Shown here in pieces: positions 351 to 28,724 of a stretch of 64,000 bases of DNA; positions within the stretch are counted from its first letter, which is position 1; every line of letters starts with the position of its first letter. A program made the translations under genes and the position numbers. The stretch comes from Deltaproteobacteria bacterium (GTDB lineage Bacteria; Desulfobacterota; JAENJC01): the NCBI GenBank assembly GCA_030646755.1, contig JAUSKU010000076.1, positions 5,162-69,161 on the forward strand, in the 5' to 3' direction. The notes beneath the pieces were generated by a model. That model was not told where the DNA came from and ran no database searches. It was given only the letters and a program-made list of their open reading frames with translations.

Positions 351-590
351 ATGAAACGGTTCCTGAAAGTCATTTATGCAGGTTGGATGAAGTTCGCCCA
401 TATCCTGGGTTGGGTAAATACGAGGATAATCCTTACCCTTGTCTATCTCATTATATTTACCCCCCTTGCCCTTATCTTCAGGCTGATAGGAAAGGATCCG
501 ATGGATAGGCGACTTGAGAAAGGTAACAGCTATTGGGTAAAAAGGGAGCAAAAGGTCTTCAGGCAAGAGGATTACCGGAGGCAGTTCTGA
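351..590 (+). CDS. small two-TM membrane protein of the kind found next to NodU/CmcH carbamoyltransferases (SxtJ-like); hypothetical
   Basis: ATG at 351 preceded by an A/G-rich stretch. A hydrophobic 79-aa product lies immediately upstream of and overlapping the carbamoyltransferase gene. The family assignment is from memory of sxtJ/sxtK-like neighbours, not from a search. Confidence 0.4.
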   Translation: MKRFLKVIYAGWMKFAHILGWVNTRIILTLVYLIIFTPLALIFRLIGKDPMDRRLEKGNSYWVKREQKVFRQEDYRRQF

Positions 591-2506
591 GTAGTTACAT
601 ATTAGGCATCTCTGCTTTCTACCATGACTCCGCCGCCTGCCTTGTAAGGGACGGCGAGATCATAGCTGCTGCCCAAGAGGAGCGGTTTACAAGGAAGAAG
701 CACGACGCTGACTTTCCCCATAAGGCTATAGGTTACTGCCTTAAAGAGGCAGGTATAGGTATAGATAATGTTGACATCATTGCCTTCTACGACAAACCCT
801 TCATAAAGCTCGAACGGATACTTGAAACATACCTTTCTGTGGCACCCAGAGGGTGGCTTTCCTTTTTGACCGCAATGCCCGGATTATTAAAACAAAAGAT
901 GTGGGTCCCCCAGATTATCCAAAAAGAGCTGGGATATAGCGGTGAGATTATATTCTGCGAACACCATGAGGCCCATGCCGCATCCGCCTTTTATCCTTCC
1001 CCATTTGAAGAGGCGGCGATACTTACTATGGATGGAGTTGGTGAGTGGGCGACGTCAAGCATAGGTATAGGTAGAGGTAAAGATATAGAACTGCTGTATG
1101 AGCAGAGGTTTCCACATTCCTTGGGCCTCCTCTATTCAGCAATTACATACTACCTCGGTTTCAAGGTCAACAGCGGTGAATACAAGGTTATGGGGCTTGC
1201 GCCATATGGGGAGCCTGCATATAAAGACCTGATACTTAACGAGTTGATTGACCTCAAGGAAGACGGCTCTTTCAGGCTAAACATGAAATATTTCGGCTTC
1301 CTGGATACCCTGAGGATGACAAACAGGAATTTTGACAGACTGTTCGGCGCTCCGGCAAGAAAGCCTGAAACCAGGCTTGCACAACGTGAAATGGATATTG
1401 CAAGGTCCTTACAGGAGGCGACGGAAGAGATCATGCTCAGGATGGCAAGGCATGCCCATAAGATAACAGGAATGAAGAACCTGTGTCTTGCCGGAGGGGT
1501 AGCATTAAACTGCGTAGGTAACGGCCGGATTCTTAGAGAAGGGCCATTTGAGAATATCTGGATACAGCCTGCGGCAGGGGATGCAGGGGGGGCCTTGGGT
1601 GCAGCATTGTTTGGATGGTACAAGTATCTGGGGAATGATAGGATGGTTAGCAGTGTCACCCCCACCCCCACCCACCCCCGTCAAGGGGGAGGGGAAGAGA
1701 GAAAGGAAGAAGAAAGCCTCCCCTCCCTTGGCGGGAGGGGATTGAGGGGAGGGGGAGACTTCATGAAGGGCTCCTACCTCGGCCCCTCCTTTACGGATGA
1801 TGAGATAGAGGAGTTCTTGAAATCAAAGAACGCTCCATTTAAAAAAGTTTCGATCTCGAATATACCAAAAGAGACAGCAAGGCTACTTTCTGATGGCAAG
1901 GTTATCGGCTGGTTCCAGGGAAGGATGGAGTTCGGGCCGAGATCCCTGGGCGCAAGGAGTATCATAGGAGACGCCAGGAATCGGGAGATGCAATCGACCA
2001 TGAACCTCAAGATAAAGTTCAGGGAGTCGTTCCGCCCGTTTGCGCCTTCGGTTCTCCGGGAGGATGTGAACGAATGGTTTGAAATGGACTGCGACAGCCC
2101 ATATATGCTATTAGTTGCCCCCACTAGGGGAAGTAAGAGGATTCCTTTGACTGAAGAACAGGAAGGGCTTTTTGGCATCGAAAAACTCAATATCCCGAAA
2201 TCTGAAATACCGGCAGTTACGCATGTGGATTATTCTGCGAGGATACAGACGGTTCATAGGTATACAAATCCGCTCTATTATGATACGATAACTGAGTTTA
2301 AAAAACTCACAGGTTGTCCGGTGATAGTAAATACCTCCTTTAATGTAAGAGGAGAACCGATAGTCTGTACACCTGATGACGCATACAGGTGTTTTATGAG
2401 GACAAACATGGATAACCTCGTTATCGGCAGCTTTATTCTCGACAAAAAGGACCAGCCTGAATTTAAAGAAGATATGGATTGGCAAAAGGAGTTCGAGTTA
2501 GATTGA
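533..2506 (+). CDS. carbamoyltransferase, NodU/CmcH (HypF-like) family, carrying a ~35-aa in-frame low-complexity insertion; the exact start is uncertain
   Basis: ILGISAFYHDSAACLVRDGEIIAAAQEERFTRKKHD, the HEAHAASAF motif and a C-terminal YrdC-like region are typical of O-carbamoyltransferases. The ATG at 533 overlaps the upstream small ORF, so the true start may be later. Confidence 0.85.
   Translation: MGKKGAKGLQARGLPEAVLSSYILGISAFYHDSAACLVRDGEIIAAAQEERFTRKKHDADFPHKAIGYCLKEAGIGIDNVDIIAFYDKPFIKLERILETYLSVAPRGWLSFLTAMPGLLKQKMWVPQIIQKELGYSGEIIFCEHHEAHAASAFYPSPFEEAAILTMDGVGEWATSSIGIGRGKDIELLYEQRFPHSLGLLYSAITYYLGFKVNSGEYKVMGLAPYGEPAYKDLILNELIDLKEDGSFRLNMKYFGFLDTLRMTNRNFDRLFGAPARKPETRLAQREMDIARSLQEATEEIMLRMARHAHKITGMKNLCLAGGVALNCVGNGRILREGPFENIWIQPAAGDAGGALGAALFGWYKYLGNDRMVSSVTPTPTHPRQGGGEERKEEESLPSLGGRGLRGGGDFMKGSYLGPSFTDDEIEEFLKSKNAPFKKVSISNIPKETARLLSDGKVIGWFQGRMEFGPRSLGARSIIGDARNREMQSTMNLKIKFRESFRPFAPSVLREDVNEWFEMDCDSPYMLLVAPTRGSKRIPLTEEQEGLFGIEKLNIPKSEIPAVTHVDYSARIQTVHRYTNPLYYDTITEFKKLTGCPVIVNTSFNVRGEPIVCTPDDAYRCFMRTNMDNLVIGSFILDKKDQPEFKEDMDWQKEFELD
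1656..1758. repeat. G-rich palindromic MITE-like element, copy 1, in-frame inside the carbamoyltransferase CDS
   Basis: Module A (cacccccacccccacccacccccgtcaaggggagggg) plus module B (cccctcccttggcgggaggggattgaggggaggggg) are also found at 23002..23100 (reverse orientation) and 48081..48176. The element translates as SVTPTPTHPRQGGGEERKEEESLPSLGGRGLRGGGD, which is absent from homologues. Confidence 0.6.
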
Positions 2507-3543
2507 AGTTTAAAAATATACTGATAGGAATAACAATATCTGTTTTCAGTATACTGTTGTCCTTTGCCGTTGCGGAGATTGCTGTCCGCATTTTATATCC
2601 CGGCATAATACCGAGCACAAAGTACGACTGGAGCTCAAGGCATAAGGGATATAAGCTTGAGAAGCCTCATACCACCTTCAGGATTGTAGTCCTTGGAGAC
2701 TCTTTTACATTCGGACAAGGTGTTAGTAGGGATGAGACCTTTCCAAAGAGGCTGGAATCAATGCTCAACAGTTACGGCGGAAGAATCAGGTTTGAGGTAG
2801 TTAATTTAGGGTTTTGCGGGTTGGAAACCAGAGGAGAACTTGAGTTACTCACCCAGGCAGGGATTAATCCTGAGACTTGGCAGCCGGACGAGAGATACCG
2901 TGGGTTGGCATATCAGCCGGATCTGATAATACTTGAATATACCCTGAATGATTCTTCTACGAGTGGAAGGACGCTGGAACAGATAAAGAAGTTTGATGAC
3001 CAATGGAGGAGAGGAGATGTTGTCATAAGGCCCAATAACGGAGCATACAGCCTTCCTGTGCCTGCCAAAGTTGATAAATTTTTGACGGTAAATTCCAGAC
3101 TTTACCTCTTTTCCCTTGATAGATACAATCAGATATTGGGGAGGCTTGGCTTGAGGGAGGCGGGTGACTCTGCTATAAATAGTATGCTAAGCCGTTATGA
3201 AGACAGTTTCGATGGATGGGTAAATGTTAAACAATCATTGTCTGAAATGGCACAGGTTGCCAAAATGAATGATCTGCCTATAGTCTTGGCCATCTATCCC
3301 CAATTAATACAATTAGACAATTATCCTTTTAAAGGAATCCATCAAAAGGTAAAATGGGTAGGGGATGTCTGGGGATTCCATACCCTGGATCTATTTCCTG
3401 CGTTTGAAGGAAAGAACGGAGCCTCCCTTTGGGTCACTCCATCTGACGGGCACCCCAATGCCGATGCCCATGAAATAGCAGCAAAGGCAATATTCTATTA
3501 TCTTACAAAAGAAGGGTTGATCCCGTATCATAAGGGAGGATAG
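2503..3543 (+). CDS. SGNH/GDSL-family hydrolase (putative sugar O-acyl esterase/transferase), paralog A
   Basis: An N-terminal TM helix is followed by a RIVVLGDSFTFGQGV GDSL block. A TTG at 2503 overlaps the upstream stop (the ORF track extends it to 2479). The product is ~45% identical by eye to the 36509..37549 product. Confidence 0.7.
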   Translation: MKFKNILIGITISVFSILLSFAVAEIAVRILYPGIIPSTKYDWSSRHKGYKLEKPHTTFRIVVLGDSFTFGQGVSRDETFPKRLESMLNSYGGRIRFEVVNLGFCGLETRGELELLTQAGINPETWQPDERYRGLAYQPDLIILEYTLNDSSTSGRTLEQIKKFDDQWRRGDVVIRPNNGAYSLPVPAKVDKFLTVNSRLYLFSLDRYNQILGRLGLREAGDSAINSMLSRYEDSFDGWVNVKQSLSEMAQVAKMNDLPIVLAIYPQLIQLDNYPFKGIHQKVKWVGDVWGFHTLDLFPAFEGKNGASLWVTPSDGHPNADAHEIAAKAIFYYLTKEGLIPYHKGG

Positions 3544-3548
3544 ATAGT

Positions 3549-3707
3549 ATGGGCAAGCTCGCGATATTTAAAGAACTCTGGGGCTTTATGAAGGCCAGGA
3601 AGAAGTGGTGGCTTGGACCGATAATTCTATTGCTGCTTCTACTTGGCATTTTAATAGTCTTTACGGAAAGTTCGGCCTTGGCGCCATTTATTTATGCTAT
3701 CTTCTGA
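3549..3707 (+). CDS. 52-aa single-TM small protein (DUF5989-like), missed by the ORF track because it is under 60 aa
   Basis: ATG at 3549 sits 3 nt after the upstream stop. MGKLAIFKELWGFMKARKKWWLGPIILLLLLLGILIVFTESSALAPFIYAIF matches the conserved small protein commonly co-located with carbamoyltransferase/glycosyltransferase clusters. The assignment is from memory. Confidence 0.5.
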   Translation: MGKLAIFKELWGFMKARKKWWLGPIILLLLLLGILIVFTESSALAPFIYAIF

Positions 3708-3720
3708 GAAAGGAACTACA

Positions 3721-4593
3721 ATGAAGGTCATTATTATCGGAGCATCTGGTCAGGTAGGTGGGGCAATAATGCGCCTTGCGCCTAAGGATTGGGAAACTAC
3801 CGGGACATATAGCGGTAAGCCGAAGCCCGGTCTTATACATCTTGATGTCTCCAACAGGAAAGAGGTATTTGAGGTATTTGAAAAGGTCAGACCCGATGTG
3901 GCGATACTTTCAGCCGCATTTACAAATGTAGACCTATGCGAGACCGATAAGGAGCGGGCAGACGCCGTTAATGTCAGCGGCCCTCTTAATATCTGCGATG
4001 CATCTGTGAAACACGGTTCCAAGATGGTCTATATGTCTACTGATTACGTCTTTGACGGGGAAAACGGGCCTTACAGGGAAGATGATGCTCCGAATCCTCT
4101 CGGGTATTATGCCTGGACAAAGCTTGAAGGGGAACGGATAACGGCCTTTACACCTAATCATCTGATAATAAGGACGACAGGCGTCTACAGCGCTGACCCT
4201 GATTCCTTGAACTTTGTCATGCAGGTGATAAAGAGGCTTGGGGCAGGGGAATCTATGAGGGTTCCGAGCGATCAGTACGGCACCCCCACCCTTGCCGACA
4301 ACCTTGCTGAGGGGATTTTGACCCTTTTAACTCTCGGAAAGACCGGCATTTTTAACGTGGCCGGTTCAGACTTTATGGACAGGTATTCGTTTTCACTCCT
4401 TATTGCAGATATATTCGGTCTTGATAAAACCCTTATTACCCAGATAGACACTCCTTCCCTCGGACAAAAGGCAAGAAGGCCTTTAAGGGCAGGGCTTATA
4501 GTTGAGAAGATCGAAAAAGAGGCCGGAATAAAGATGGTTGGAGCAAGGGAGGGTTTAATGTTTGTCAAGGAGAGGCTCAATGCTTCACGGTAA
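3721..4593 (+). CDS. RmlD-like NAD(P)-dependent sugar nucleotide reductase (dTDP-4-dehydrorhamnose reductase family)
   Basis: [16 protein letters not shown] Rossmann motif and a Y..WTK catalytic pair ([10 protein letters not shown]). The ATG at 3721 has an AAGGA RBS. No rmlABC genes are nearby. Confidence 0.75.
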
Positions 4594-6333: not shown

Positions 6334-7955
6334 GAAAGTTTTTATCTAATCTTACCCAACATACCCCATTTCTGATATTCATAACCATAATTTTTTTCTA
6401 TATATTTTACCCTTTCCATTATGAAGAGGGAGGAATTTCTGCGGACGCAGTTTTCGATGCCCAGATAGCAAGAAATATCCTGCTTGGCGATGGTCTTGGG
6501 TGGCAGGCAACGCTCCAACCACCTTTTCATGCAATATTAACATCTGCCGTATATCCATTAACAGGAAGTATACTTATAGGTGGCATCCTGATATCAAAGC
6601 TCATGTGGTGGCTTTTGCCTATTCCTGTTTATATACTGGCAAAGGAGATGTTTGGGACCAAGATTGGACTGACTTCAGCTATCCTTGCTTTTTTTCATCC
6701 TCACTTCAGTTTCTCATCAGGGATGATGGAGCCGACCGTAACCTATCCGACCCTTTTGTTATTTGGCATCTGTTTTATGTGGCATGCATTTTCGAAAGAA
6801 AAGATCTTTTATGCCTTCCTCGGAGGATTGTTTTTTACCTTTTCATACCTTAGTCGTTCGGAGGGGTTATTTATATTTCTCATTTCTCTTTCTGTCTTAT
6901 TATTCATTGCCTTTAAAGACTATTTTAAAACAGGCGCTGTTCACAAAAGATTGCTGATCATAGCTGTTTTAATTATTTCTTTCATCTTATCATCTCTTCC
7001 ATATATCTTATTTTTAAAGGATACCTACGGTAAGGTGGTCCTTTCACCTAAGTCGACTTACGTCCAGACATGGATGAAGTGGAGGATATATCATGATAAC
7101 GATCTTGGCGAGACTGGAAATCCTGACCTCTGGGGCCTGAGTAAAAACGGTAAGCTTATGTGGCAGAAACCTAAAGGAATAGGAGACCTTGTAAGATACC
7201 TCATGTCTCAGCCGGAAAAGAGCCTTAGGGTCTACCTCCTTAACTTCAGCATGCAGATACCGGGAAGGATACCAAACAACTCCGGGCAGTGGCTCTATCC
7301 ACAGGTATATCCCTGGTACTTTGTCATACCGGCCTTTTTCTGGATTGCTTCTCGCAGACGGAAAGAGGATTGGGAAAAAACCATATTCCTGCTATCACCC
7401 TTTTTGATCTTATTTATACTCCCTATATTTTCCGAAGGATGGTGGAAATACCTGCTCCCATATTCCCCTTTTTTGATCATCCTTGGAGTTGCAGGCGTTT
7501 CCGATATATGCGAACGATTCCGTTGGAAGCAACTGCTTCCAGCTTTTACTGTGATTATAGCCATCTATTCCCTCTGGACAGTAAAGGCCAGCCCCCTCGT
7601 AAAACATGGCGATAAAGGAGTTATTGCGAGAGGTTCCATGCTTAATGAACAGATAAAAGCCGGAAAATGGGCGCAAAAACGGTTCAAGGGCATCCAGAAT
7701 TACATGGTCCAGTGGAGCAAGTTGACATATTACCTGAACGGAAGATGGATTGCAAAGCCTGTGACAACATACGATGGGATGATTTGGTATGCAAGGAAGA
7801 ACAGGGTGGATTACATTGTGATCGAGACCAGTGGCAGGGACGAATCGGAAGAGATAATAAGGATCATGGGGAATACAGCTGACCTTGAAGTTGCGGATGT
7901 ATATGAGAGCACGACCAGCAGCTACAGTGTTGTATTTTTAAGGCTCAGAAAATAA
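6330..7955 (+). CDS. ArnT/PMT-like GT-C membrane glycosyltransferase (GT39/GT83-type)
   Basis: A polytopic membrane protein whose first periplasmic loop reads DAVFDAQIARNILLGDGLGWQATLQPPFH, resembling the ArnT DxxYAEIAREML..GDW...KPPL motif. ATGA overlap with the upstream gene. Confidence 0.65.
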   Translation: MRKFLSNLTQHTPFLIFITIIFFYIFYPFHYEEGGISADAVFDAQIARNILLGDGLGWQATLQPPFHAILTSAVYPLTGSILIGGILISKLMWWLLPIPVYILAKEMFGTKIGLTSAILAFFHPHFSFSSGMMEPTVTYPTLLLFGICFMWHAFSKEKIFYAFLGGLFFTFSYLSRSEGLFIFLISLSVLLFIAFKDYFKTGAVHKRLLIIAVLIISFILSSLPYILFLKDTYGKVVLSPKSTYVQTWMKWRIYHDNDLGETGNPDLWGLSKNGKLMWQKPKGIGDLVRYLMSQPEKSLRVYLLNFSMQIPGRIPNNSGQWLYPQVYPWYFVIPAFFWIASRRRKEDWEKTIFLLSPFLILFILPIFSEGWWKYLLPYSPFLIILGVAGVSDICERFRWKQLLPAFTVIIAIYSLWTVKASPLVKHGDKGVIARGSMLNEQIKAGKWAQKRFKGIQNYMVQWSKLTYYLNGRWIAKPVTTYDGMIWYARKNRVDYIVIETSGRDESEEIIRIMGNTADLEVADVYESTTSSYSVVFLRLRK

Positions 7956-9618: not shown

Positions 9619-10797
9619 ATGAATATCCAGCAGATGAGAAATATAGATTCCTTAATTGGAGGGATCGTTTGCCTGCTCTTAGAGATCTCTGAGCGGATCA
9701 AAAGGATATTTTTCAACAGACCTTCCATTCCTTCTGATGTAGAAAATATACTGATTACAAAGTATCTGGGAATGGGGAGTATCCTGCTCGCAACCCCGAT
9801 GTTAAGGAGCTTGCGGTCCAAGTTCCCAAAAAGTAAAATTGTCTTCATGACATTTGACGGCAACGCACAGTTTGCCAGGCAAATTAGCGTGATTGATGAA
9901 GTGATTTCAATAAGAACCAAGACATTGTCATCATTCACAATAGACCTGTTGAGGGCTCTTTTTAAAATAAGACGAAAAAGGTTCGATCTGGTCTTTGACC
10001 TCGAGTTTTTTGCCAGATTTTCTACAATTGTCTCATACCTGAGCGGAGCAAAGATGAGGGTTGGGTACTATCTTCCGAAGTTATGGAGGGGTGACCTCCT
10101 TACCCACCAGGTCCATTTTAACCCGTATAAGCACGTCACAGAGGTTTTTGCGGCGCAGTTAAAATCCATCGGAATAAAGGTAACGGATTTCAGCTTAGTT
10201 CCGCCCGTTCTCAAGGAAGAAAAGGTTGCGAGCGTTCGATCATTGCTCAAAGAAAAGGGCGTTAATGAAGGAGAAAAAATAGTATCGGTAAATGTCAACG
10301 CCAGCGACCTGTCTGTAGAGAGGAAGTGGCCCAGAGAGAGTTTTGTAGAGCTTATAGCTTCTATCATTGAACGGGAAAAAGAGACGAGGATTATCCTTGT
10401 AGGTTCAAAAGGAGAGGTAAAATATGTAAAAAGTGTATATGATTCACTACCTGAAGAAACTAGGGGCAGGGTGATAGATCTTTCTGGGAATCTTGATATA
10501 GAGGAGTTCATAGCGCTTCTCAAGCATAGCGCCCTCTTTATAACCAATGACAGCGGTCCTCTTCATATCGCATCCTCCCTTGGTACGCCTACCGTCTCGT
10601 TCTTTGGGCCCGAGTCTCCATCACTTTACGGACCCGTAGGCAGCCGTAATATGGTTTTCTATGCAGGAATATATTGCAGTCCCTGCCTTAATGTTTATAA
10701 TGCCAAAACTGCAATGTGCAAAGGGGACAATCGCTGCATGAAAGAGATAAAGCCTTCAGAAGTTATAGATACCTTGCTTAAAGAAGGGATGTTATAA
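9619..10797 (+). CDS. GT9-family glycosyltransferase (LPS heptosyltransferase-like) with a Cys-rich C-terminal tail
   Basis: ILITKYLGMGSILLATPMLRSLRSKFPKSKIVFMT and LVGSKGE...ITNDSGPLHIASSLGTPTVSFFGP motifs are typical of GT9. Confidence 0.75.
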   Translation: MNIQQMRNIDSLIGGIVCLLLEISERIKRIFFNRPSIPSDVENILITKYLGMGSILLATPMLRSLRSKFPKSKIVFMTFDGNAQFARQISVIDEVISIRTKTLSSFTIDLLRALFKIRRKRFDLVFDLEFFARFSTIVSYLSGAKMRVGYYLPKLWRGDLLTHQVHFNPYKHVTEVFAAQLKSIGIKVTDFSLVPPVLKEEKVASVRSLLKEKGVNEGEKIVSVNVNASDLSVERKWPRESFVELIASIIEREKETRIILVGSKGEVKYVKSVYDSLPEETRGRVIDLSGNLDIEEFIALLKHSALFITNDSGPLHIASSLGTPTVSFFGPESPSLYGPVGSRNMVFYAGIYCSPCLNVYNAKTAMCKGDNRCMKEIKPSEVIDTLLKEGML

Positions 10798-11687
10798 TGA
10801 CTCGATTCGAGAGGATAATCAGGGCATGTCCCGTATGCGGAGATAAGGATTTTAAGAGGCTGTTTTCCAAGGATGGGCTTGAATTCGTCAAATGTAGAGG
10901 TTGCGGCTTGGTTTACATCAACCCCCAGCCTGCGGACGATGAGATAAGCGCCTTATACTCCGAGGATTACTATAAACCCTGGGGTCTGGATACAGATTCT
11001 TCGGTAGTTTCAGAGATGAAGATCACTACCTTTGACGACAAGCTTACAATGGTCGAGAGGTTCATTAAGAAAGGAAGGATACTCGATATAGGATGTGCCA
11101 CAGGATTCTTCCTTGAGGCTGCGAAGAGGAAGGGATGGGACGTCTTCGGAGTGGAGATATCCCCATACTCTGCAGCAATAGCCCAGGAAAGGTTTGGAAA
11201 AGACAGAGTCTTCAGCGGACCACTGGAAGCGGCATCGTACAAGGACGGTTTTTTCGATGTGGTCTTTATGTCGGATCTTGTAGAGCATGTAAAGGACCTT
11301 GATCTTTTTTTTAAAGAAGTCTTTCGAATAGTAAAGGTTAAGGGAATTATTGCAATAGTGACCCCGAACATAGAAAGCCTGTCTTACAGAATCATGAGAA
11401 AGTTATGGCCTCACCTCAAGATGGAGCATCTCTACTATTTTTCGCCTTCAACGATGAAAAGGCTTCTTGAGAGGGAGGGGTTCAACCCGGTTTACATGTC
11501 CGCTGCAACCAAGGCGTTGAACCTGAGTTATGTAGAAAGGCAGTTTTCAACTTATCCAATGCCATTGTTGACCCCTGCGCTCAAGTGGCTTGCAGCGGTA
11601 TTGCCTGATGGCCTGAAAAACAGGAAGATCATGGTACATACCGGAGAAATATTTGTGATTGCCGAGAGAGTAATTAAAAATGCCTGA
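10797..11687 (+). CDS. class I SAM-dependent methyltransferase with an N-terminal Cys4 zinc ribbon, paralog of 5359..6333
   Basis: CPVCGDK...CRGCG ribbon; LDIGCATGFF motif; FDVVFMSDLVEHVKD. Confidence 0.75.
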   Translation: MTRFERIIRACPVCGDKDFKRLFSKDGLEFVKCRGCGLVYINPQPADDEISALYSEDYYKPWGLDTDSSVVSEMKITTFDDKLTMVERFIKKGRILDIGCATGFFLEAAKRKGWDVFGVEISPYSAAIAQERFGKDRVFSGPLEAASYKDGFFDVVFMSDLVEHVKDLDLFFKEVFRIVKVKGIIAIVTPNIESLSYRIMRKLWPHLKMEHLYYFSPSTMKRLLEREGFNPVYMSAATKALNLSYVERQFSTYPMPLLTPALKWLAAVLPDGLKNRKIMVHTGEIFVIAERVIKNA

Positions 11688-13062
11688 TAAGATCCTACTG
11701 CTGAACCCGCCCGGTAAAAAGTTATATGTCCGGGATTATTACTGCAGCAAGATATCTAAAAGCAACTACCTCTTTCATCCCGTTGACCTACTGATGCTCA
11801 GCGGCAGACTGGCTGAACGGTATGAGGTGCGGCTGATAGATGCCATTGCCGACAGAATAGATGATGCCTCCTGCTTAACTATGATTGATGCCATCTCTCC
11901 AGATGTCATAATTTCATTGATTGGCGCCGTATCTCTTGATGAGGACCTGCCGTTTATAAAAAGACTTGCAAAAGATGGACGGCGTATCGTGGTAAGCGGG
12001 GATATCTCACTGGAAAACACAGAGAAATGGTTGGACGGCTATCCCTTTATAGATGCTGTCATCCTTGACTTCACCTCGGATGACATAATTCATTACCTGA
12101 AAGGTAATCACAGCGCAATCAGCGGCATGGTTTACAGAACAGTGAAGGGGATAAGCAAGACCAATCCGGCAAGACCTAAGAATGAGGCTTTTTTCTTGCC
12201 TATACCGAGACACGACCTATTCTCATCTAAAAACTACCGTTTCCCTTTCGTAAGGCACAAACGGTTTGCTACTGTACTTACTGATTATGGCTGTCCGTTC
12301 AGGTGCTCCTTCTGTGTCATGAGCACCCTCGGTTACAGATACAGAGAGGTTGAAAATGTAATCGAGGAGCTCAAAACATTAAAGAGACTTGGCAAGAAGG
12401 AGATCTTTTTTATAGACCAGACCTTCGGTATAAATAAAAAACGCATCCTTGACTTATGTCAAAGAATGAAGGAGGAGGGGTTCAATCTAGGCTGGGTATG
12501 TTATTCAAGGGTGGACTTAGTAGTTGAAGAGGTGATAAAGGGGATGAAGGAGGCTGGCTGTCACACTATAATCTTCGGCGTAGAGTCTGCCAGTGAGGAG
12601 ATACTGAAAAAATATCAGAAGGGTTACAATAAGACCCAGATAAGGGATGCTTTCAGGCTTTGCAAAAAATACAATATTAGAACAGTTGCTACATTCATCC
12701 TCGGCCTGCCTGAGGAGACGGAAGAAACCGCCAATGAGACGATAGAGTTTTTGAAGGAGTTAGATTGCGACTTCGCCTCATTTAATGTGGCGGTTCCCAG
12801 GATGAATACTCCCTTAAGACAAAAGGCTATCCGGGAGGGGCTCATAACCTCTGACCTGGAGATTATGGACCAGGGAGGCGCTTCCATAGCCATGCCGACC
12901 AGGCACTTGACTATGGAACAGGTTCAGGATCTGAAAAAAAAGGCGATCAGGGGGTTCTATCTGAGACCCTCATATCTATGGAGAAGGTTGAAAGGCGTAT
13001 CGTCTTTGTATGAGCTTAAGGAACAGGTTTCCGAGGGGTTAACTTTGCTGAAGGGGATATAG
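11680..13062 (+). CDS. B12-binding domain radical SAM enzyme (class B), 1 of 3 in tandem
   Basis: N-terminal cobalamin-binding Rossmann-like domain (KILLLNPPGKK...) followed by a CPFRCSFC radical SAM cysteine triad. Confidence 0.8.
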   Translation: MPDKILLLNPPGKKLYVRDYYCSKISKSNYLFHPVDLLMLSGRLAERYEVRLIDAIADRIDDASCLTMIDAISPDVIISLIGAVSLDEDLPFIKRLAKDGRRIVVSGDISLENTEKWLDGYPFIDAVILDFTSDDIIHYLKGNHSAISGMVYRTVKGISKTNPARPKNEAFFLPIPRHDLFSSKNYRFPFVRHKRFATVLTDYGCPFRCSFCVMSTLGYRYREVENVIEELKTLKRLGKKEIFFIDQTFGINKKRILDLCQRMKEEGFNLGWVCYSRVDLVVEEVIKGMKEAGCHTIIFGVESASEEILKKYQKGYNKTQIRDAFRLCKKYNIRTVATFILGLPEETEETANETIEFLKELDCDFASFNVAVPRMNTPLRQKAIREGLITSDLEIMDQGGASIAMPTRHLTMEQVQDLKKKAIRGFYLRPSYLWRRLKGVSSLYELKEQVSEGLTLLKGI

Positions 13063-17910: not shown

Positions 17911-20418
17911 ATGAACAACGAGAACTTTAAAGACCTCCTGCCCCTCGTCAGCAAACCAAGCCGCTATCTCGGAACCGAGGTCAACTCCATACACAAGGAC
18001 CTGGATAAGGTAGATATCAAGATCGCCCTGGCATTCCCTGATGTATATGAAGTTGGGATGTCCCATCAGGGACTCCATATCCTTTACCATATATTAAACA
18101 GTTTCCCATACGTCGCGGCAGAGCGGGCATATGCCCCCTGGCTCGATATGGAGAAGCTCCTCAGGGAAAGGGGCCTTCCGCTTTCCTCCCTGGAATCAAA
18201 CATCCCTCTTCGGGAGTTCGACATATTGGGGTTTTCCCTCCAGTACGACCTCTGCTATACCAACATGCTCAACATGATGGACCTTGCAGATATCCCTCTC
18301 CGGGCTTCGGAGAGGGATGGGACCTTCCCCCTGGTTATTGCAGGAGGCCCCTGCGTATTCAACCCTGAGCCTGTGGCAGAATTCCTTGATGCAGTTCTTA
18401 TAGGTGACGGGGAAGAGGCGCTTCCTGAGATAGTTGAGACATACAGGAACTGGAAGTTGAGTGGATGCGAAGGTGGGAAGTTGGGCCTTCTTCGAACCTT
18501 GGCGACAATTAAGGGTGTGTATGTGCCTTCCTTCTTCGATGTCTCATACAAAGACGACGGGACTGTTAAAGAGATAAGACCGAAGTATGACGACTATCCA
18601 AAGGTCGAAAAGAGGATAGTCGGAGACCTCAACACCGTCCCATATCCTGATAAGCCGATAGTCCCTTTCATGCAGATCGTCCATGACAGGGTAAACCTGG
18701 AGGTAACAAGGGGATGCACAAGGGGTTGCAGGTTCTGCCAGGCAGGGATGATATACAGGCCAACAAGGGAGAGGACGCCTGAGAAGCTCCAGGAGATAGC
18801 AGAGAAGGCGTTGCGTTCTACCGGGTACGAAGACCTGTCACTCCTCTCCCTTTCCACAGGCGACTACTCCTGTATAAGCGATCTGCTTGCCAATCTTATG
18901 GACAGATATTCCGATGAAAAGATTGCCATATCCCTGCCTTCCATGAGGGTCGACACCATGAGCCCTGAGCTGATCTCTGAGATAAAGAGGGTCAGAAAGA
19001 CAGGTTTTACAATGGCCCCGGAGGCCGGAAGCGAGAGGCTCAGGGAGGTAATTAACAAGGGGATAACGGAGGAGGACCTCCTGAATTCAGTCCGGCAGGT
19101 ATTTGAGGCGGGATGGGATTCGGTAAAACTCTACTTCATGATAGGCCTGCCAACGGAGACCGATGACGATATCGTGGCCATAGCGGATATGGCGGGCAAG
19201 GCGATGAAGATATGCAGGCAACTGAGGGGGAAGAGTGCCACGGCGTCAGTTGCAACCTTTGTCCCAAAACCCCACACCCCTTTTCAGTGGGAGCCTCAGA
19301 TGAGGATTGACGAGACAAGGAGGAGGCATGATATACTAAAGAGGGAGCTGAAGAAAAACAGGGTGACCTTCAAGTGGCATGAACCTGCAATGAGCGAATT
19401 GGAGGGGGTATTCGCAAGAGGGGACAGGCGCTTGTCAAAAGTAATAGCCAGGGCCTTCGAACTTGGGTGCAGGTTTGACGGATGGGGGGAGATCTTCAGG
19501 TACGACCTCTGGCAGAGGGCCTTCGATGAGTGCGGAGTTGTTCCTTCTTTTTACCTGAGAAAAAGAGGTTTTGAAGAGACCCTACCATGGGACCACATAG
19601 ATTCTGGGGTATCAAAGAAGTACCAGGTATTAGAGGCAAAAAGAAGCTACGAGAACGTATTTACTCCGGACTGCCGCTATGATGACTGCACCGGCTGCGG
19701 CCTTTGTGACTTCAAGACGATAAAAAACAGGATTGGGGAGGGAGATGTCACGAGAAGGCCCAAACCTCTCCTTAAACCAAAACCGAACCTTGCAGTGCGG
19801 CGGATAAGGCTCACCTACTCAAAGCTTGAAGAGGCCAGGCTTCTGGGACATCTGGAGCTGGCCAGCGTGTTTTCGAGAGCAGTAAGGAGGGCGGGCATTC
19901 CGGTGCGCTACTCCTCAGGATTTCACCCAGCGCCCAGGATAATATTCTCCCCCCCGATATCTCTCGGAATGGAATCTATGGAGGAGTTTGCAGATATAGA
20001 GATAGAGGGTTATATTTCCTGTACGGAGATAAAGGACAGGCTGAACCTGGAACTCCCTAAAGGCATCAAGATAACAGAGACTGGAGACATAGAGATGGGG
20101 CTACCTGCCGTCACTTCGGCAGTGACGAAGGCGGACTATGAAATAAAGTGGCCAGTGGTCGGTGGTCAGGGGTCAGCGGTTTTAAGGGATTTTATGGGAA
20201 AGGACTCATTTCTCTTCAAAAAGGAACGAACCGGTAGGGAGTATGATATAAGGCCGCTGATTGAACGGCTTGAGGCTGCGGACAATAAGATAGGGATGAC
20301 CATAAAGGCCGGGAAGGAAGGGGGCATAAAACCTGGGGAGCTTGTCCAGACCCTCCTGGGCCTCAATGATGAAGAGACAAAGTTGCTGAGGATTATGAAG
20401 ACGAGGACGTACTTATAA
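17911..20418 (+). CDS. radical SAM protein of the TIGR03960 family fused to a C-terminal TIGR03936/DUF2344 domain
   Basis: N-terminus VSKPSRYLGTEVNSIHKD; radical SAM CTRGCRFC. At 835 aa the length equals TIGR03960 (~600) plus DUF2344 (~230). It sits directly upstream of an RNase G gene, the usual genomic context. Confidence 0.75.
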   Translation: MNNENFKDLLPLVSKPSRYLGTEVNSIHKDLDKVDIKIALAFPDVYEVGMSHQGLHILYHILNSFPYVAAERAYAPWLDMEKLLRERGLPLSSLESNIPLREFDILGFSLQYDLCYTNMLNMMDLADIPLRASERDGTFPLVIAGGPCVFNPEPVAEFLDAVLIGDGEEALPEIVETYRNWKLSGCEGGKLGLLRTLATIKGVYVPSFFDVSYKDDGTVKEIRPKYDDYPKVEKRIVGDLNTVPYPDKPIVPFMQIVHDRVNLEVTRGCTRGCRFCQAGMIYRPTRERTPEKLQEIAEKALRSTGYEDLSLLSLSTGDYSCISDLLANLMDRYSDEKIAISLPSMRVDTMSPELISEIKRVRKTGFTMAPEAGSERLREVINKGITEEDLLNSVRQVFEAGWDSVKLYFMIGLPTETDDDIVAIADMAGKAMKICRQLRGKSATASVATFVPKPHTPFQWEPQMRIDETRRRHDILKRELKKNRVTFKWHEPAMSELEGVFARGDRRLSKVIARAFELGCRFDGWGEIFRYDLWQRAFDECGVVPSFYLRKRGFEETLPWDHIDSGVSKKYQVLEAKRSYENVFTPDCRYDDCTGCGLCDFKTIKNRIGEGDVTRRPKPLLKPKPNLAVRRIRLTYSKLEEARLLGHLELASVFSRAVRRAGIPVRYSSGFHPAPRIIFSPPISLGMESMEEFADIEIEGYISCTEIKDRLNLELPKGIKITETGDIEMGLPAVTSAVTKADYEIKWPVVGGQGSAVLRDFMGKDSFLFKKERTGREYDIRPLIERLEAADNKIGMTIKAGKEGGIKPGELVQTLLGLNDEETKLLRIMKTRTYL

Positions 20419-20478: not shown

Positions 20479-21474
20479 ATGCCTGAACTTCGCCTGAACC
20501 TTATAACACGTGAGTGGGTTATAATAGCCAAAGAGAGAGCAAAGAGGCCAGAGGAGTTCAGGATAACATCCGAGAGAAGGGCTCTGCCACAGTTTTCCGA
20601 GACATGCCCTTTCTGTCCCGGGAATGAGGGGAGGACACCGCCTGAGACCTATTCCCTCAGGGATGAGAATGGATGGTCAGTGAGGGTTACCCCGAACAAG
20701 TTTGCCGCTCTTTCCTACAAAGGTGAAAGAAAGAGGGAGAACGGGGGCATAAAAAGGACGCTGAGCGGGGTAGGTATCCATGAGGTGATTGTTGAGACCC
20801 CTTCCCACAACATGACTACGGCCCTTCTTCCCCTGAACCAGGTGGAGAATATCCTCAGGGTATACAGGGAGAGGTTTGTGGAGGCGTACAAAGACCCGAG
20901 GGTGGAACATGTCATAATCTTCAAGAACCAGGGGGAAAGGGCGGGGACGTCACTGGAGCACCCCCACTCCCAGCTGGTAGGTACCCCTGTGACGCCGATC
21001 CAGGTCAGGATGAGGGTTGATGAGGCGATACGTTTCTTTGACGACACAGGCGACTGTCTCATGTGCAAGACCCTGAAGGATGAGCTGCAGGAAGGAACAA
21101 GGATAATAATGGAGACAGAGCACTTTGTGGCATTCATACCCTATGCAGCCCTCTCCCCTTTTCATACATGGATATTTCCCAGGAGGCACAACCCCTCCTT
21201 TGCAGGTATAACTGATGAAGAGATAAACGACCTGGCAAGGATCATGAAGACCACACTGGGAAAGGTATATTACGGTCTTGATAATCCTGATTTTAATTAT
21301 ACAATACGTTCCATGAGGCCCATATCAGGCAACATAGAGTTTTTCCACTGGTATCTCAGCATAGTACCAAGGGTTTATCAGACATCGGGGTTTGAGATGG
21401 GGTCCGGAATGTATATAAATATGGCTCTGCCTGAGGCAAGCGCAGAGTTTTTAAGGAGCATAGATGTCCAATGA
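20479..21474 (+). CDS. GalT-like HIT-superfamily nucleotidyltransferase (galactose-1-phosphate uridylyltransferase family)
   Basis: Zinc-site CPFCPGNE followed by the HPHSQL histidine-triad variant. Confidence 0.7.
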   Translation: MPELRLNLITREWVIIAKERAKRPEEFRITSERRALPQFSETCPFCPGNEGRTPPETYSLRDENGWSVRVTPNKFAALSYKGERKRENGGIKRTLSGVGIHEVIVETPSHNMTTALLPLNQVENILRVYRERFVEAYKDPRVEHVIIFKNQGERAGTSLEHPHSQLVGTPVTPIQVRMRVDEAIRFFDDTGDCLMCKTLKDELQEGTRIIMETEHFVAFIPYAALSPFHTWIFPRRHNPSFAGITDEEINDLARIMKTTLGKVYYGLDNPDFNYTIRSMRPISGNIEFFHWYLSIVPRVYQTSGFEMGSGMYINMALPEASAEFLRSIDVQ

Positions 21475-22984
21475 ATTGATTATAAACGCCACAAGTTATG
21501 AAACAAGGGTCGCCCTTCTCGAAAATGGCATAGTTTCCGAGCTTTTCATCGAGAGAAGCCGGGACTTGGGGATATTCGGGAACATATACAAGGGAAGGGT
21601 CGTAAAGATACTTCCAGGTATGCAGGCAGCCTTTGTGGATATAGGACTTGAGAGGACCGCCTTCCTGTATGTTACCGACGTAAGTGAGGGAGTTGAAGAG
21701 TATGATGTCTTTATGAAAGAAGGGGATGAAGGGATAGAGTTCGAATCAGAGCTTGGCTCCGTCCGATTTTCCCCTGCCGCATCCGTCCCGATAGAGGACC
21801 TCTTAAAAGAGGGACAGGAAGTGCTGGTACAGGTGTCAAAAGAGCCCCTCGGTACAAAGGGCGCGAGGATAACATCCCATATATCCCTTGCCGGAAGACA
21901 CCTGGTATTCACGCCGACCGTTGATCATGTAGGAGTATCCAGGAGGATCGAGAACGATAAGGAGAGAAAGAGGCTTAAGGACATTGTTTCGGGTATAAGG
22001 CCTCCAGGAACAGGATTTATAGTAAGGACCGTAAGCGAGGGAAAGAGCGAAGAAGAGCTGAGGGCTGACATGGATTACCTGGTCAAGCTCTGGGACAACA
22101 TACAGAAAAAGAGGGAAAACGCCTCAGCCCCAGCCCTGATCCATTCGGAGCTTAACCTTACTCTCAGGGTCATAAGGGACATGTTCTCGGCAGATATATC
22201 CAGGCTGGTCATAGACTCAAATAATGAGTATGAGAAGGCGATGGAGTTTGTAAATACCTTTATGCCAAAGGTTTCCGAGTTCATAGAACTTTATGAAAGA
22301 GATGAACCGATATACGATGCCTACGGGATAGAGCTTGAGATAAGCAGAGCTCTTGGTAAAAGGGTGTGGCTCAAATCCGGCGGGTATATAATCATAGACC
22401 AGACCGAGGCCTTGGCTGCCATAGATGTCAACACAGGAAGGTATACTGGCAAAAAGAAGCTCGAGGACACTGTACTTAAGACAAACCTGGAGGCAGTCAA
22501 GGAAGTGGCTTATCAGCTGCGGCTGAGGAACCTGGGCGGGATCGTAATCATAGACTTCATAGACATGGATAAGCCCGCCAACAGGGAGAAGGTATATAAT
22601 GCCCTCATGGAGGCCCTCAAAAAGGACAAGGCCAGGACCAACATATTGAAGATATCGGAGTTCGGCCTCATTGAGATGACCAGGAAAAGGGTCAGGGAGA
22701 GTCTCAACCAACTTCTTTGCGAGCCTTGCCCTTATTGTGACGGAAGGGGAACGATAAAGTCGAAGAATACCATATGCTACGGGATATTCAGGGCTGTAAG
22801 GCGGGAGTCTCCCGACCTCCCTGGAGAAAAGATATTGATCGCAGTAAACCCCGAGATAGCAGACCTGTTATATGATGAAGAAAGCCAGGGTGTCGAAGAA
22901 CTTGAGAAATCTCTCGGCAAAAAGATCATCATTAAGGCCAGAAATACCTTCCATCAGGAGCAGTACGAGATAACAGGGATATAA
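21464..22984 (+). CDS. rng: ribonuclease G (RNase E/G family)
   Basis: S1 domain at the N-terminus and an RNase E/G catalytic core (DFIDMD...). ~505 aa, typical of Rng/CafA. Confidence 0.85.
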   Translation: MSNELIINATSYETRVALLENGIVSELFIERSRDLGIFGNIYKGRVVKILPGMQAAFVDIGLERTAFLYVTDVSEGVEEYDVFMKEGDEGIEFESELGSVRFSPAASVPIEDLLKEGQEVLVQVSKEPLGTKGARITSHISLAGRHLVFTPTVDHVGVSRRIENDKERKRLKDIVSGIRPPGTGFIVRTVSEGKSEEELRADMDYLVKLWDNIQKKRENASAPALIHSELNLTLRVIRDMFSADISRLVIDSNNEYEKAMEFVNTFMPKVSEFIELYERDEPIYDAYGIELEISRALGKRVWLKSGGYIIIDQTEALAAIDVNTGRYTGKKKLEDTVLKTNLEAVKEVAYQLRLRNLGGIVIIDFIDMDKPANREKVYNALMEALKKDKARTNILKISEFGLIEMTRKRVRESLNQLLCEPCPYCDGRGTIKSKNTICYGIFRAVRRESPDLPGEKILIAVNPEIADLLYDEESQGVEELEKSLGKKIIIKARNTFHQEQYEITGI

Positions 22985-23001: not shown

Positions 23002-23100
23002 TCCCCCTCTCCCTTGACGGGAGAGGGTTGGGGTGAGGGTGAAACGTCACCATGCTGGTTCCCCTCCCCTTAATCCCCTCCCACCAGGGGAGGGGATTAA
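23002..23100. repeat. G-rich palindromic MITE-like element, copy 2, intergenic and in reverse orientation
   Basis: ccccctctcccttgacgggagagggttggggtgagggtg plus cccctccccttaatcccctcccaccaggggaggggattaa are the reverse complements of modules A and B. Confidence 0.6.
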
Positions 23101-27263: not shown

Positions 27264-28724
27264 ATGATCAACAAAGGCATTTTCAGGGAATACGACATAA
27301 GGGGCATAGCGGAGAAAGACCTTACCGATGAGGTGGTAACGCTGATAGGGAAGGGGTACGGGACCCTTGTAAGGCGTGAGACGTCAGACGTCAGACGTAA
27401 GCCGAAAGTGGCCGTGGGGCGGGATGTAAGGCTCAGCTCTAAGAGGCTCAGGGACGCCCTTATAAACGGTCTGACCTCTGTCGGTATTGACGTCATGGAT
27501 GTAGGCGAATGCCCGACCCCTCTCCTGTATTTCGCCGCATATACGCGGGATGTGGACGGCGGTATAATGATAACCGGGAGTCACAACCCCCCGGAATACA
27601 ATGGTTTCAAGATACTGATAGGTAAAGACACCATCCACGGCGGAGGGATTCAAGACCTCAGAAAGCTTATAGATACAGGTTCATTCGCCACCGGCCCAAT
27701 CGGCAGCGTTGAAGCCTTTGACGTGATCCCGGCCTACATCAAGGACGTAAAAGAAAGGTTCAACGCTGCCGGGAAAAAGATAAAGGCCGTAGTTGATTCA
27801 GGTAACGGCACAGGCGGCCTCGTTGCCCCGGAACTGTTAAAAAGCATAGGAGTCGATGTAATCCCGCTCTTCTGTGAGGTGGACGGCAATTTCCCGAACC
27901 ACCACCCCGACCCTACAGTCCCGGAAAACCTCAAAACCCTTATAGACAGGGTCATATCCGAGAATGCAGACCTTGGCATTGCCTATGATGGGGATTCGGA
28001 CAGGATCGGTGTTGTAAATGAGAAGGGCGCCATTATCTGGGGAGACCAGCTTATGATCCTCTTTGCGAGGGACATATTGAAGGGGACTGTCCCAGATTTA
28101 CGGACACCCCCCCTCAATCCCCCCCTTGCTAAGGGGGGGACGAAAGGGGGGGTAGAATCGGGACTGTCCCCGGCTTTGACGGAGAAACCTGTATTCGTTG
28201 GTGAGGTGAAGTGTTCCCAAGTCATGTATGACGACATTGAGAAGAAGGGCGGAAGGGCCATCATGTGGAAGGCAGGGCACTCCCTGATAAAAGACAAGAT
28301 GAAGAAGGAGAAGGCTGTCCTTGCAGGGGAGATGAGCGGGCATATTTTCTTTGCCGATAGATACTATGGTTTCGATGACGCCATCTACGCCACCTGCCGG
28401 GTCATAGAGATACTGAAAAAAGAAGGGAAACCTCTTTCCGAGCTTCTGGCCGACCTTCCAGAGACCTTTAACACGCCGGAGATCCGGGTAGACTGCCCGG
28501 ATGACAAGAAGTTCGATATAGTAGAGAGGGCGAAGGAGAAACTGGCAAAGGACTATCCCATAATCGATGTAGATGGTGTTAGAGTGAAGTTTAAAGAGGG
28601 TTGGGGCCTGATAAGGGCGTCCAATACCCAGCCTGTATTGGTGACAAGGTTTGAGGCGTCATCGGAAGAAAAACTCTTGGAATACAGGCATATTGTAGAG
28701 AAACTGCTGAAGGAGGTTATTTAA
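27264..28724 (+). CDS. phosphomannomutase/phosphoglucomutase (alpha-D-phosphohexomutase) with a ~30-aa in-frame insertion
   Basis: TGSHNPPEYNGFK active-site loop; GEMSGHIFFADRYYGFDD. The insertion lies between the LFARDIL and VFVGEVKCS blocks. Confidence 0.85.
   Translation: MINKGIFREYDIRGIAEKDLTDEVVTLIGKGYGTLVRRETSDVRRKPKVAVGRDVRLSSKRLRDALINGLTSVGIDVMDVGECPTPLLYFAAYTRDVDGGIMITGSHNPPEYNGFKILIGKDTIHGGGIQDLRKLIDTGSFATGPIGSVEAFDVIPAYIKDVKERFNAAGKKIKAVVDSGNGTGGLVAPELLKSIGVDVIPLFCEVDGNFPNHHPDPTVPENLKTLIDRVISENADLGIAYDGDSDRIGVVNEKGAIIWGDQLMILFARDILKGTVPDLRTPPLNPPLAKGGTKGGVESGLSPALTEKPVFVGEVKCSQVMYDDIEKKGGRAIMWKAGHSLIKDKMKKEKAVLAGEMSGHIFFADRYYGFDDAIYATCRVIEILKKEGKPLSELLADLPETFNTPEIRVDCPDDKKFDIVERAKEKLAKDYPIIDVDGVRVKFKEGWGLIRASNTQPVLVTRFEASSEEKLLEYRHIVEKLLKEVI
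28094..28159. repeat. diverged G-rich palindromic element inserted in the phosphomannomutase CDS, flanked by 11-bp direct repeats
   Basis: ccccccctcaatcccccccttgctaagggggggacgaaaggggggg is flanked by GGGACTGTCCC at 28083..28093 and 28160..28170. It is related to module B of the element family. Confidence 0.5.

Follow-up and report, generated by a model that had tools for sequence, protein, structure and literature searches.

An in-frame inverted pair of putative G/C-rich triplex motifs in the interdomain linker of a bacterial carbamoyltransferase gene

The carbamoyltransferase gene and its insertion

We analysed a 64,000-nucleotide stretch of contig JAUSKU010000076.1 (hereafter the window), in which a palindromic element of 108 nt lies within the reading frame of a carbamoyltransferase gene. 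As detailed below, the element is very probably made of two intrastrand triplex motifs, rich in G and C and inverted relative to each other, of the BoxC, potential intrastrand triplex (PIT) or TM kind, carried in frame and tolerated in the linker between two domains of the enzyme. The gene and the parts of the element are as follows, with L001, L002 and L003 denoting three orthologous loci in related organisms.

587-2506, plus strand: carbamoyltransferase gene of the TobZ/NodU/CmcH type, host of the insertion, assigned from Pfam, PDB matches and the NCBI product of 639 residues.
1653-1760, no strand assigned: whole palindromic insertion of 108 nt, a probable inverted pair of triplex-motif modules with a spacer, encoding residues ~356-391.
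1656-1693, minus strand: module B, C-rich on the coding strand, TCACCCCCACCC-CC-ACCCACCCCC-GTCAA-GGGGGAGGG, with 1 mismatch to a pan-phylum consensus of 118 copies.
1694-1718, no strand assigned: purine-rich spacer, GAAGAGAGAAAGGAAGAAGAAAGCC, encoding EERKEEES, with 13 of the 16 positions after module B common to L001.
1719-1756, plus strand: module A, TCCCCTCCC-TTGGC-GGGAGGGGA-TTG-AGGGGAGGG-GGA, with a triplex motif at 1719-1753 that has 0 mismatched triads.

The open reading frame (ORF; 533/587 to 2506, plus strand) runs uninterrupted for 639 codons with 0 stops and 0 frameshifts. The NCBI product starts at a CTG at 587, and an in-frame TTG lies upstream at 533. The CTG at 587-589 overlaps the stop codon of the upstream gene (CTGA), and three orthologues have TTG at the same position. 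Both Pfam domains, Carbam_trans_N (residues 4-340) and Carbam_trans_C (residues 430-619), score over their full length, and the closest solved relatives among PDB matches are the O-carbamoyltransferases NovN, GdmN, VtdB and TobZ. A protein of 639 residues that is 100% identical (P0001) is on record as a carbamoyltransferase from a metagenome-assembled genome (MAG) labelled 'Deltaproteobacteria bacterium', and homologues are typically 605-609 residues long. The sequence at 1653-1760 is GTGTCACCCCCACCCCCACCCACCCCCGTCAAGGGGGAGGGGAAGAGAGAAAGGAAGAAGAAAGCCTCCCCTCCCTTGGCGGGAGGGGATTGAGGGGAGGGGGAGACTT, which reads on the coding strand as GTGTCACCCCCACCCCCACCCACCCCC GTCAA GGGGGAGGGG, the purine spacer, and TCCCCTCCC TTGGC GGGAGGGGA TTG AGGGGAGGGGGAGACTT. 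It is translated in the frame of the gene as SVTPTPTHPRQGGGEERKEEESLPSLGGRGLRGGGD, preceded by a GAALFGWYKY block and followed by a MKGSYLGPSFTDDEIEEF block. The initial annotation, made from the sequence alone, had placed an in-frame, low-complexity insertion without stop or frameshift between these two blocks, and both the insertion, within one ORF, and its peptide were borne out. Since stops are absent from three of the element's six frames, open in-frame passage is by itself unremarkable.

To measure the insertion we took the length of the site as the number of residues between ...LGN(D/E)R and MKGSYLGP in an alignment of the 120 best homologues. This length is 7-13 residues in 116 of the 120 and 40 residues in the window protein. 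P0002 and P0003, the two closest relatives at 85% identity each, have 37 and 22 residues there, and in P0088 the site holds 20 residues of unrelated sequence. An empty site is seen at the DNA level in L003, whose protein is 81% identical (...CGG GTG ATT GAT GGA AGG ATA GAT TCA ATG AAG...), and relative to L003 the window gene has a net gain of 96 nt, or 32 residues. The insertion itself is therefore confirmed, although the ~35 added residues first proposed were a slight overestimate. The initial annotation had further reasoned that the segment would be an ancestral linker if homologues from unrelated bacteria carried it. A comparable segment was found only in the two closest orthologues and was missing from the 81% identical orthologue and from 116 of the 120 homologues, so the idea of an insertion withstood this comparison. 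No target-site duplication was found at 1653/1760, and no direct repeat flanks the element.

The place of the insert in the protein was determined from an alignment to a solved structure and from a structural model. In the HMMER alignment to NovN, residues 10-341 and 395-622 of the window protein align with residues 25-343 and 361-572 of NovN, leaving 17 residues between the aligned blocks in NovN versus 53 in the window protein. A model computed with AlphaFold2 from 23 homologues (mean pLDDT 72, pTM 0.76) has TM-scores of 0.66-0.74 to TobZ, GdmN and VtdB. Residues 356-394, which are modelled as coil without secondary structure at a pLDDT of 24-28, fall between the helix 331-347 that closes the N-terminal domain and the helix 404-413. 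The low pLDDT together with the break in the alignment to a solved structure indicates that the insert is a disordered extension of the interdomain connection, and the model predicts a disordered loop there, joining the N-terminal to the C-terminal domain.

Comparison of the window gene with those of L001, L002 and L003 gave ratios of nonsynonymous to synonymous divergence (dN/dS) of 0.03-0.08 at dS values of 1.0 to >2, at which synonymous sites are saturated. In addition, all columns that are invariant among the other 22 aligned homologues are kept in the window protein. Judged from these comparisons, the host enzyme is under strong purifying selection and is not inactivated, and the low dN/dS at saturated dS suggests that it has long been functional with the insert in place. 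Of the two consequences for the enzyme considered in the initial annotation, a surface loop thus fits the data and inactivation does not.

Triplex-motif architecture and relation to known repeats

The palindrome has arms of 41 nt that are 71% complementary, and as RNA the element folds into one long hairpin (-61.2 kcal/mol; z = -2.3 against dinucleotide shuffles). This z-score is only modest because shuffled C-runs and G-runs pair well too, and the ViennaRNA folding used here covers Watson-Crick pairs only. The modules, of ~38 nt, follow a common plan, in which two C-rich arms joined by a short linker are followed by a 5-nt loop and by a G-rich arm pairing with the second of them; some modules are the reverse complement of this plan. 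On the minus strand, module B has the order pyrimidine arm, loop, purine arm, loop, mirror purine arm.

We scanned the window for class II purine-motif triplexes (stems of at least 8 nt and short loops), composed of a pyrimidine arm, its Watson-Crick purine arm and an antiparallel third arm in which G lies opposite G and A or T opposite A. The scan detected nine loci in the window and none in any of the 30 dinucleotide shuffles tried, and it also detected the E. coli locus L122, which served as a positive control. Within the gene, the plus-strand motif of module A is accompanied by a minus-strand motif at 1659-1693 with 1 mismatched triad. There are four such elements in 64 kb, each of which has one triplex motif per strand. 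The three relatives of the in-gene element, which confirm that the palindrome noted initially is a repeat, are listed here.

23005-23097, minus strand: intergenic sibling copy, 21 nt past the stop of gene 21464-22984; its part 23005-23039 fits the strict TMECO pattern.
48083-48174, plus strand: intergenic sibling copy in the order A-spacer-B, 11 nt past the stop of gene 47407-48072.
28083-28170, plus strand: sibling copy in frame in the phosphomannomutase/phosphoglucomutase (PMM/PGM) gene 27264-28724, with a C7/G7 triplex-motif hairpin at 28104-28160.

Counted over the window and all loci fetched, 37 flanks of pyrimidine/purine hairpins mirror the purine arm exactly and 2 repeat it exactly in direct order, and 10 distinct arm variants follow the mirror rule. 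A flank that stays mirrored through sequence variation is what marks an intrastrand triplex of the purine-motif type, whose triads are G.G-C and A/T.A-T. Among the listed matches to the family core described below, the upstream flank TCACCCYCACCC, which lies outside the search pattern, is conserved in ~85%. The variable Y of this flank covaries with the stem's Y/R pair, and it is from this covariation that the triplex architecture was recognised. We infer from their sequences that these particular copies may fold as triplexes. Four G-tracts are present in many copies, and variants such as GGGGGAGAG...GAGAGGGGG keep the mirror symmetry without four good G-tracts; a G-quadruplex was therefore rejected as the organising principle, as it has been excluded for the E. 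coli motif by nuclear magnetic resonance (NMR; Holder et al., PMC4666352). A switch between alternative hairpins, in which the third arm would pair with the pyrimidine arm, needs direct repeats and was rejected on the count of 2 direct versus 37 mirror flanks.

BoxC repeats were re-described as PIT elements by Hoyne et al. (2000, 2002, as cited in PMC4666352), and the TM/TMECO name comes from Holder et al. (2015), who found the strict pattern 3610 times in 262 proteobacterial genomes (PMC4666352). Single strands of the E. coli motif form a very stable triplex as seen by circular dichroism and NMR, and motifs of types A and B often face each other as inverted pairs (PMC4666352). The motifs have no link to transposons, show clearly raised local sequence variability between strains, and in E. 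coli MG1655 are always intergenic (PMC4666352). The repeats of the window share with BoxC/PIT/TMECO the order of the arms (pyrimidine, Watson-Crick purine, mirror purine), the triads (G.G-C and A/T.A-T), the dimensions (arms of ~9 nt, loops of 3-6 nt, a module of ~37 nt), and the habit of dispersed multi-copy repeats that form inverted two-type pairs, are locally unstable and, in the loci scanned, show no linked transposase. Unlike the MG1655 motifs, the element studied here is in frame within a coding sequence, its modules are C-type and CCCCTCCC-type variants and not strict TMECO, and its host is an uncultured MAG labelled as a deltaproteobacterium.

The relation to E. coli can be followed through the intergenic copies. 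In the window, 23005-23039 is the only match to the strict TMECO pattern CCCTCNCCC N3-6 GGGNGAGGG N3 GGGNGAGGG, and 100 shuffles gave 0 matches. A 40-nt query, identical at 38 of 40 positions to the reverse complement of 23003-23042, matches 5403 of 5426 complete E. coli genomes at a median of 16 places per genome, with the best matches being ~95% identical. The E. coli hrpB-mrcB spacer has two facing modules in the same layout as the intergenic copies of the window. The C-type modules of the gene and the T-type modules of E. coli are caught by one degenerate pattern and have conserved flanks in common.

The initial annotation had likened the insertion to the Rickettsia palindromic elements (RPEs), which Ogata and colleagues reportedly described in 2000. 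This analogy holds as a way of behaving, whereas by its architecture the element falls in a different known family, BoxC/PIT/TM. Like an RPE, it is a dispersed palindrome found in frame in unrelated ORFs, where it adds a few dozen residues and leaves the host gene intact, and it has intergenic copies too; presence within an ORF whose function is kept is a functional resemblance only. Compared by description with RPEs, which are Rickettsia-specific families, the window element differs in having no tags and no A/T-containing stems, and it has a mirror-repeat third arm, a feature with which RPEs are not described.

RPEs are referred to, and some are classed as CGTC-tagged repetitive extragenic palindromes (REPs), in PMC3733652, and in-frame palindromic repeats are documented well beyond Rickettsia in the form of REPs in many species (Di Nocera et al. 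2013, PMC3733652). What defines a REP is a palindrome of 20-40 bp that carries, on one side, an unpaired tag, GTAG or CGTC (PMC3733652). As with intragenic REP dimers, which encode 20-30 residues within ORFs (PMC3733652), the element is a repeat that adds a peptide to an ORF; REPs are also mostly intergenic and near the 3' ends of upstream genes, as are the window copies that lie 11 and 21 nt past a stop; and uvrA is among the genes hit by REPs (PMC3733652), a UvrA-like gene carrying a triplex module in L046. In contrast to GTAG/CGTC REPs, the element has neither an unpaired tag nor a CCA tail. Membership in that group was rejected because the consensus of 118 copies among the matches listed begins TCACCC and lacks a GTAG or CGTC at its ends. 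As to a link with REP-associated tyrosine transposases (RAYTs, of the Y1 type), whose genes are flanked by the repeats they mobilise, no recurrent neighbour family stands beside the modules in at least 115 loci, the ORFs of the window being only partly annotated; a single gene acting in trans from elsewhere in each genome might still serve the copies.

Other candidates were also considered and set aside. PMC5896051 describes the MITEs of Coxiella (miniature transposable elements with inverted repeats) as short, non-autonomous repeats that insert in frame, and the window element resembles them as a short non-autonomous repeat able to extend or create coding sequence. A MITE was rejected because there are no terminal inverted repeats tied to a known insertion sequence, no target-site duplication and, in the at least 115 loci scanned, no recurrent transposase neighbour. 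An intein or intron is disfavoured by the 108-nt size, by the lack of splice or intein motifs and by the many intergenic copies. Rfam gave 0 matches in the whole window at gathering thresholds, and a known RNA family was rejected since a relaxed search returned sub-threshold hairpin look-alikes, mainly miRNA precursors, with a DUF1874 RNA at 25 bits against a cut-off of 42. When the 36-residue insert peptide was compared by phmmer with 1.84 billion representatives, a single match came back, which we judged spurious as it is a repetitive protein of 1588 residues without a matching stretch; the peptide is too short and biased for such a census. A literature search with the core sequence as a string returned unrelated papers only.

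Occurrence across phyla and in other genes

A degenerate 24-nt core, ACCCNCYCCCGTCAAGRGRGAGGG, is present in at least 115 stretches of species-representative genomes among the matches listed. These come from all classes of Proteobacteria as well as from Dehalococcoidia (Chloroflexota), Planctomycetota, Nitrospirota, Nitrospinota, Armatimonadota, Deferribacteres, Atribacteria, Firmicutes and Actinobacteria, with Deefgea rivuli DSM 18356 and Sphingomonas ursincola among the isolates. We observed this core of the E. coli BoxC/TMECO motif together with the conserved TCACCCYCACCC third arm (L004-L118) in at least nine phyla beyond Proteobacteria, and several complete Dehalococcoidia chromosomes carry multiple copies. 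The inverted pairing of two types is seen in the window, in E. coli and in other phyla.

We determined how often these copies lie inside genes by asking whether an ORF extends at least 60 codons on both sides. This was the case for 17 of 94 usable copies among the matches listed, compared with 64% of random positions, which indicates that the family is mostly intergenic and avoids genes and that the window copy is an exception. Clustering of the ORFs of the at least 115 scanned loci revealed no recurrent neighbour: the most widely shared family occurs in 7 loci, and the top ORF clusters near modules look like ordinary housekeeping genes.

The clear in-frame cases in other phyla sit at domain boundaries. 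A CobB-type protein of Deferribacteres (L077) has an in-frame copy between its CbiA (11-188) and GATase_3 (260-457) domains, a dihydrolipoamide dehydrogenase of Burkholderiales (L105) has one in the linker between its lipoyl (5-76) and E3 (142 onward) parts, and the copy in L046 lies between the halves of the UvrA-like protein. Within the window, the PMM/PGM protein has 38 residues between two aligned blocks where the Pseudomonas aeruginosa enzyme has 7. The in-frame repeat at 28083-28170 adds ~31 residues to this phosphomannomutase. An older palindrome, with GGGACTGTCCC at 28083 and 28160 as its bounds, encloses this repeat's C7/G7 hairpin at its apex. The nested hairpin is shared by the window and L120, whereas L119 has the GGGACTGTCCC...GGGACTGTCCC palindrome without the C7/G7 module. 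The 11-nt GGGACTGTCCC on either side belongs to the older palindrome and is not a duplication made by the insertion. Across relatives this loop holds at least four kinds of repeat-derived peptide, its DNA being a GTAG REP in L121 and the GGGACTGTCCC palindrome in L119.

We also observed GTAG-headed, REP-like palindromes, GTAGGGGC...GCCCCTAC, in frame at 11165-11192 of L001 and 3821-3847 of L121, that is, in these relatives' versions of the carbamoyltransferase and PMM/PGM loops, where they encode ...PLQ(D/E). By sequence, triplex motifs and GTAG REPs are distinct, yet they share permissive loops and form mosaics. A comparable event is found in the PMT_2 glycosyltransferase gene of L001 (18610-20259), which has a 36-nt net in-frame insert with a C/G-tract module, NPPQSPLKLRGE..., at 19036-19079. 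This insert is absent from the orthologues in the window (6768-6800) and in L002.

Origin of the insert, alternatives and significance

We propose that an inverted triplex-motif pair entered linker DNA between the Kae1-like N-terminal and the YrdC-like C-terminal domain of the O-carbamoyltransferase. As single strands, each module could fold as a hairpin or as a purine-motif triplex, and the two modules together would form the long palindrome. Survival within the gene would have depended on a net length that is a multiple of three (96 nt) and on a stop-free frame. The C/G tracts would then encode a stretch rich in Pro, Gly, Thr, Arg and Glu that suits a flexible linker already variable in length. 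At the protein level the insert would be a tolerated passenger, its peptide presumably neutral. At the DNA level it would behave like its intergenic relatives, keeping the family consensus and being locally unstable, and this instability would account for the rearranged versions seen in orthologues. Copies landing elsewhere in genes would be removed by selection, which could explain both the depletion of the family in ORFs and the restriction of the survivors to linkers.

The boundaries of the insert agree within ~1 codon in the window, L001 and L002, and the content differs. The window insert is made of the C-type module B, the purine spacer and module A. In L001, module B is identical to that of the window at 35 of 38 nt and the stretch after it at 13 of 16, with a GTAG-headed REP-like palindrome, GTAGGGGCAATTCATGAATTGCCCCTAC, instead of the module A hairpin. 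L002 has just one module, T-type and partly decayed, whose second loop is the E. coli-like TTA. We favour a single ancestral insertion that was followed by partial deletion and replacement, as described for E. coli TM sites (PMC4666352). The three shared boundaries are in keeping with this history, as are the 13 of 16 positions shared after module B, a stretch outside the family consensus, and the insert-bearing proteins, which are mutually closer (86-87%) than to L003 (85%) and so fit one event.

Alternatively, the site could be a hot spot that was colonised independently, or could have received its contents by gene conversion from other copies, a possibility that concerns the history of the site only and not the identity of the element. 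We regard it as the less probable course of events. The closest gene pair, window and L002 (dS 1.0), has the most different inserts, with a T-type TTA loop in L002 as opposed to the C-type in the window and L001, and the difference between the two types involves coordinated changes in all three arms. In addition, a GTAG-headed palindrome of another kind makes up the right half of the L001 insert, related lineages show the PMM/PGM loop occupied by at least four kinds of palindrome, with a nested insertion among them, and module B has stayed at the family consensus in the face of saturated synonymous sites. The agreement of the boundaries, the shared stretch after module B and the closeness of the insert-bearing proteins are what keep us with a single insertion.

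At dS 1.9 the neutral expectation is ~31% identity, so a module B with 35 of 38 positions identical between the window and L001 is conserved far above neutral DNA, a level that fits the conservation of the family across phyla. It is conceivable, though on balance we doubt it, that BoxC/TM repeats are actively renewed or held by selection even inside genes. This is suggested by the 92% identity of module B at saturated dS, by the difference in subtype between the closest orthologues and by the copy in a hairpin apex. If insertion or gene conversion does target hairpin loops, filled and empty orthologous sites could easily be aligned and dated. This would give a first handle on the spread of a repeat family known since the 1990s, to which no transposase has been linked, and it would mean that triplex-prone DNA is tolerated in transcribed coding sequence.

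Several points weigh against the element being a tolerated, in-frame pair of BoxC/TM triplex motifs. Neither module in the gene fits the strict TMECO pattern, and blastn with the entire element matches nothing in E. coli, which is found only with the consensus of the T-type module. For these reasons we class the copy with G/C-rich triplex-motif pairs of BoxC/TM type and not as a strict TMECO, and the sequence relation to E. coli holds for the family and not for the in-gene copy itself. The proposed membership is drawn from the shared architecture and from intermediate variants that a single degenerate pattern returned. These variants are putative triplex formers, and even for the E. coli motif a stable triplex has gone undetected in vivo (PMC4666352). 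The 92% identity of module B despite saturated dS is unexpected for a purely neutral passenger. Furthermore, the window is a single metagenome-assembled contig, its gene starts with CTG where the orthologues have TTG, and production of the full-length protein is assumed from the gene sequence.

The insert might instead have been co-opted, either as a longer tether between the domains or through its DNA or RNA structure, for instance as a pause site for transcription or translation between domains. An insert has been kept in three lineages across dS of at least 1, the element is better conserved than synonymous sites, and its mRNA hairpin (-61 kcal/mol) is very stable, which speaks for this reading. 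However, the peptides at the site differ in length (40, 37 and 22 residues) and in sequence among the three orthologues, a sister lineage and ~116 other homologues manage without an insert, and the model has no structure at this place. The conservation, moreover, is a property of the whole repeat family in every genomic context and not of the carbamoyltransferase gene, and PIT elements, as summarised in PMC4666352, had no promoter or terminator activity in E. coli. We therefore consider a co-opted function improbable.

It is more improbable still that the gene was inactivated by the insertion or is a decaying pseudogene, as a 32-residue low-complexity insert between two catalytic domains and the unusual CTG start codon might suggest. 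The dN/dS of 0.03-0.08 against three orthologues, the 639 codons without stop or frameshift, and the retention of the invariant columns and of both full-length Pfam domains all speak against this, and the TTG at 533 is a possible alternative start. Least probable of all is an assembly artefact in which a repeat-induced chimera or mis-join put an intergenic repeat into the gene: such repeats are often at contig ends in the scanned genomes among the matches listed and so do disturb assemblers, and P0001 is on record from one source assembly, with an exact look-up returning no other contig, but the frame is exactly preserved, the flanks are colinear with orthologues, independent JGI and Logan assemblies of related organisms carry inserts at the same site, and records of the insert-bearing PMM protein exist both at NCBI and in a Logan assembly.

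Taken as a tolerated pair of triplex motifs, the insertion appears to be a fairly ordinary case of selfish DNA in a protein loop, apparently harmless to the enzyme. In-frame palindromic repeats in protein loops are already known, as are BoxC/TM elements as conserved and abundant repeats. What would be new, and modestly so, is the sequence-based finding of probable triplex-motif pairs in frame and in interdomain linkers, with the motif far outside Proteobacteria. The carbamoyltransferase, PMM/PGM, the CobB-type amidase and the lipoyl-E3 fusion provide examples at domain boundaries. In practice such repeats mean inflated protein lengths, low-complexity 'PTPT...GGGE' or 'SPSP...KGEG' stretches in MAG proteomes, and broken assemblies. 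Filled, empty and rearranged alleles at conserved coding sites make a clean system in which the rate of repeat turnover and the movement of the repeats can be studied.

The carbamoyltransferase gene belongs to a conserved cluster (351-590, 587-2506, 2479-3543, 3549-3707 and 3694-4593 in the window). A small SxtJ-like protein is encoded upstream of the carbamoyltransferase, followed by a GDSL-type lipase, DUF5989, an RmlD-like reductase, and GT2 and PMT_2 glycosyltransferases, with the Pfam labels taken from the syntenic loci L001-L003. This setting points to a role of the enzyme in the carbamoylation of a cell-surface glycan. The carbamoyltransferase of L001 (P0002, gene 10001-11944) has an extra 6-residue insert, GAGTGR, after KEA near residue 60. 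It occurs in no other aligned homologue (alignment A1, columns 95-100) and may be a further small G-rich insertion.

Elsewhere in the window, a weaker, A/T-containing triplex-like motif with one mismatch is present at 57819-57852 (minus strand). Within 57508-60230, it lies in a stretch of which three co-linear blocks have 79-84% identity to a second stretch ~1.9 kb downstream. Finally, 58-nt units recur every ~135-153 nt (with one gap of 315) over 61744-62689, in what looks like a repeat-domain gene on the minus strand.

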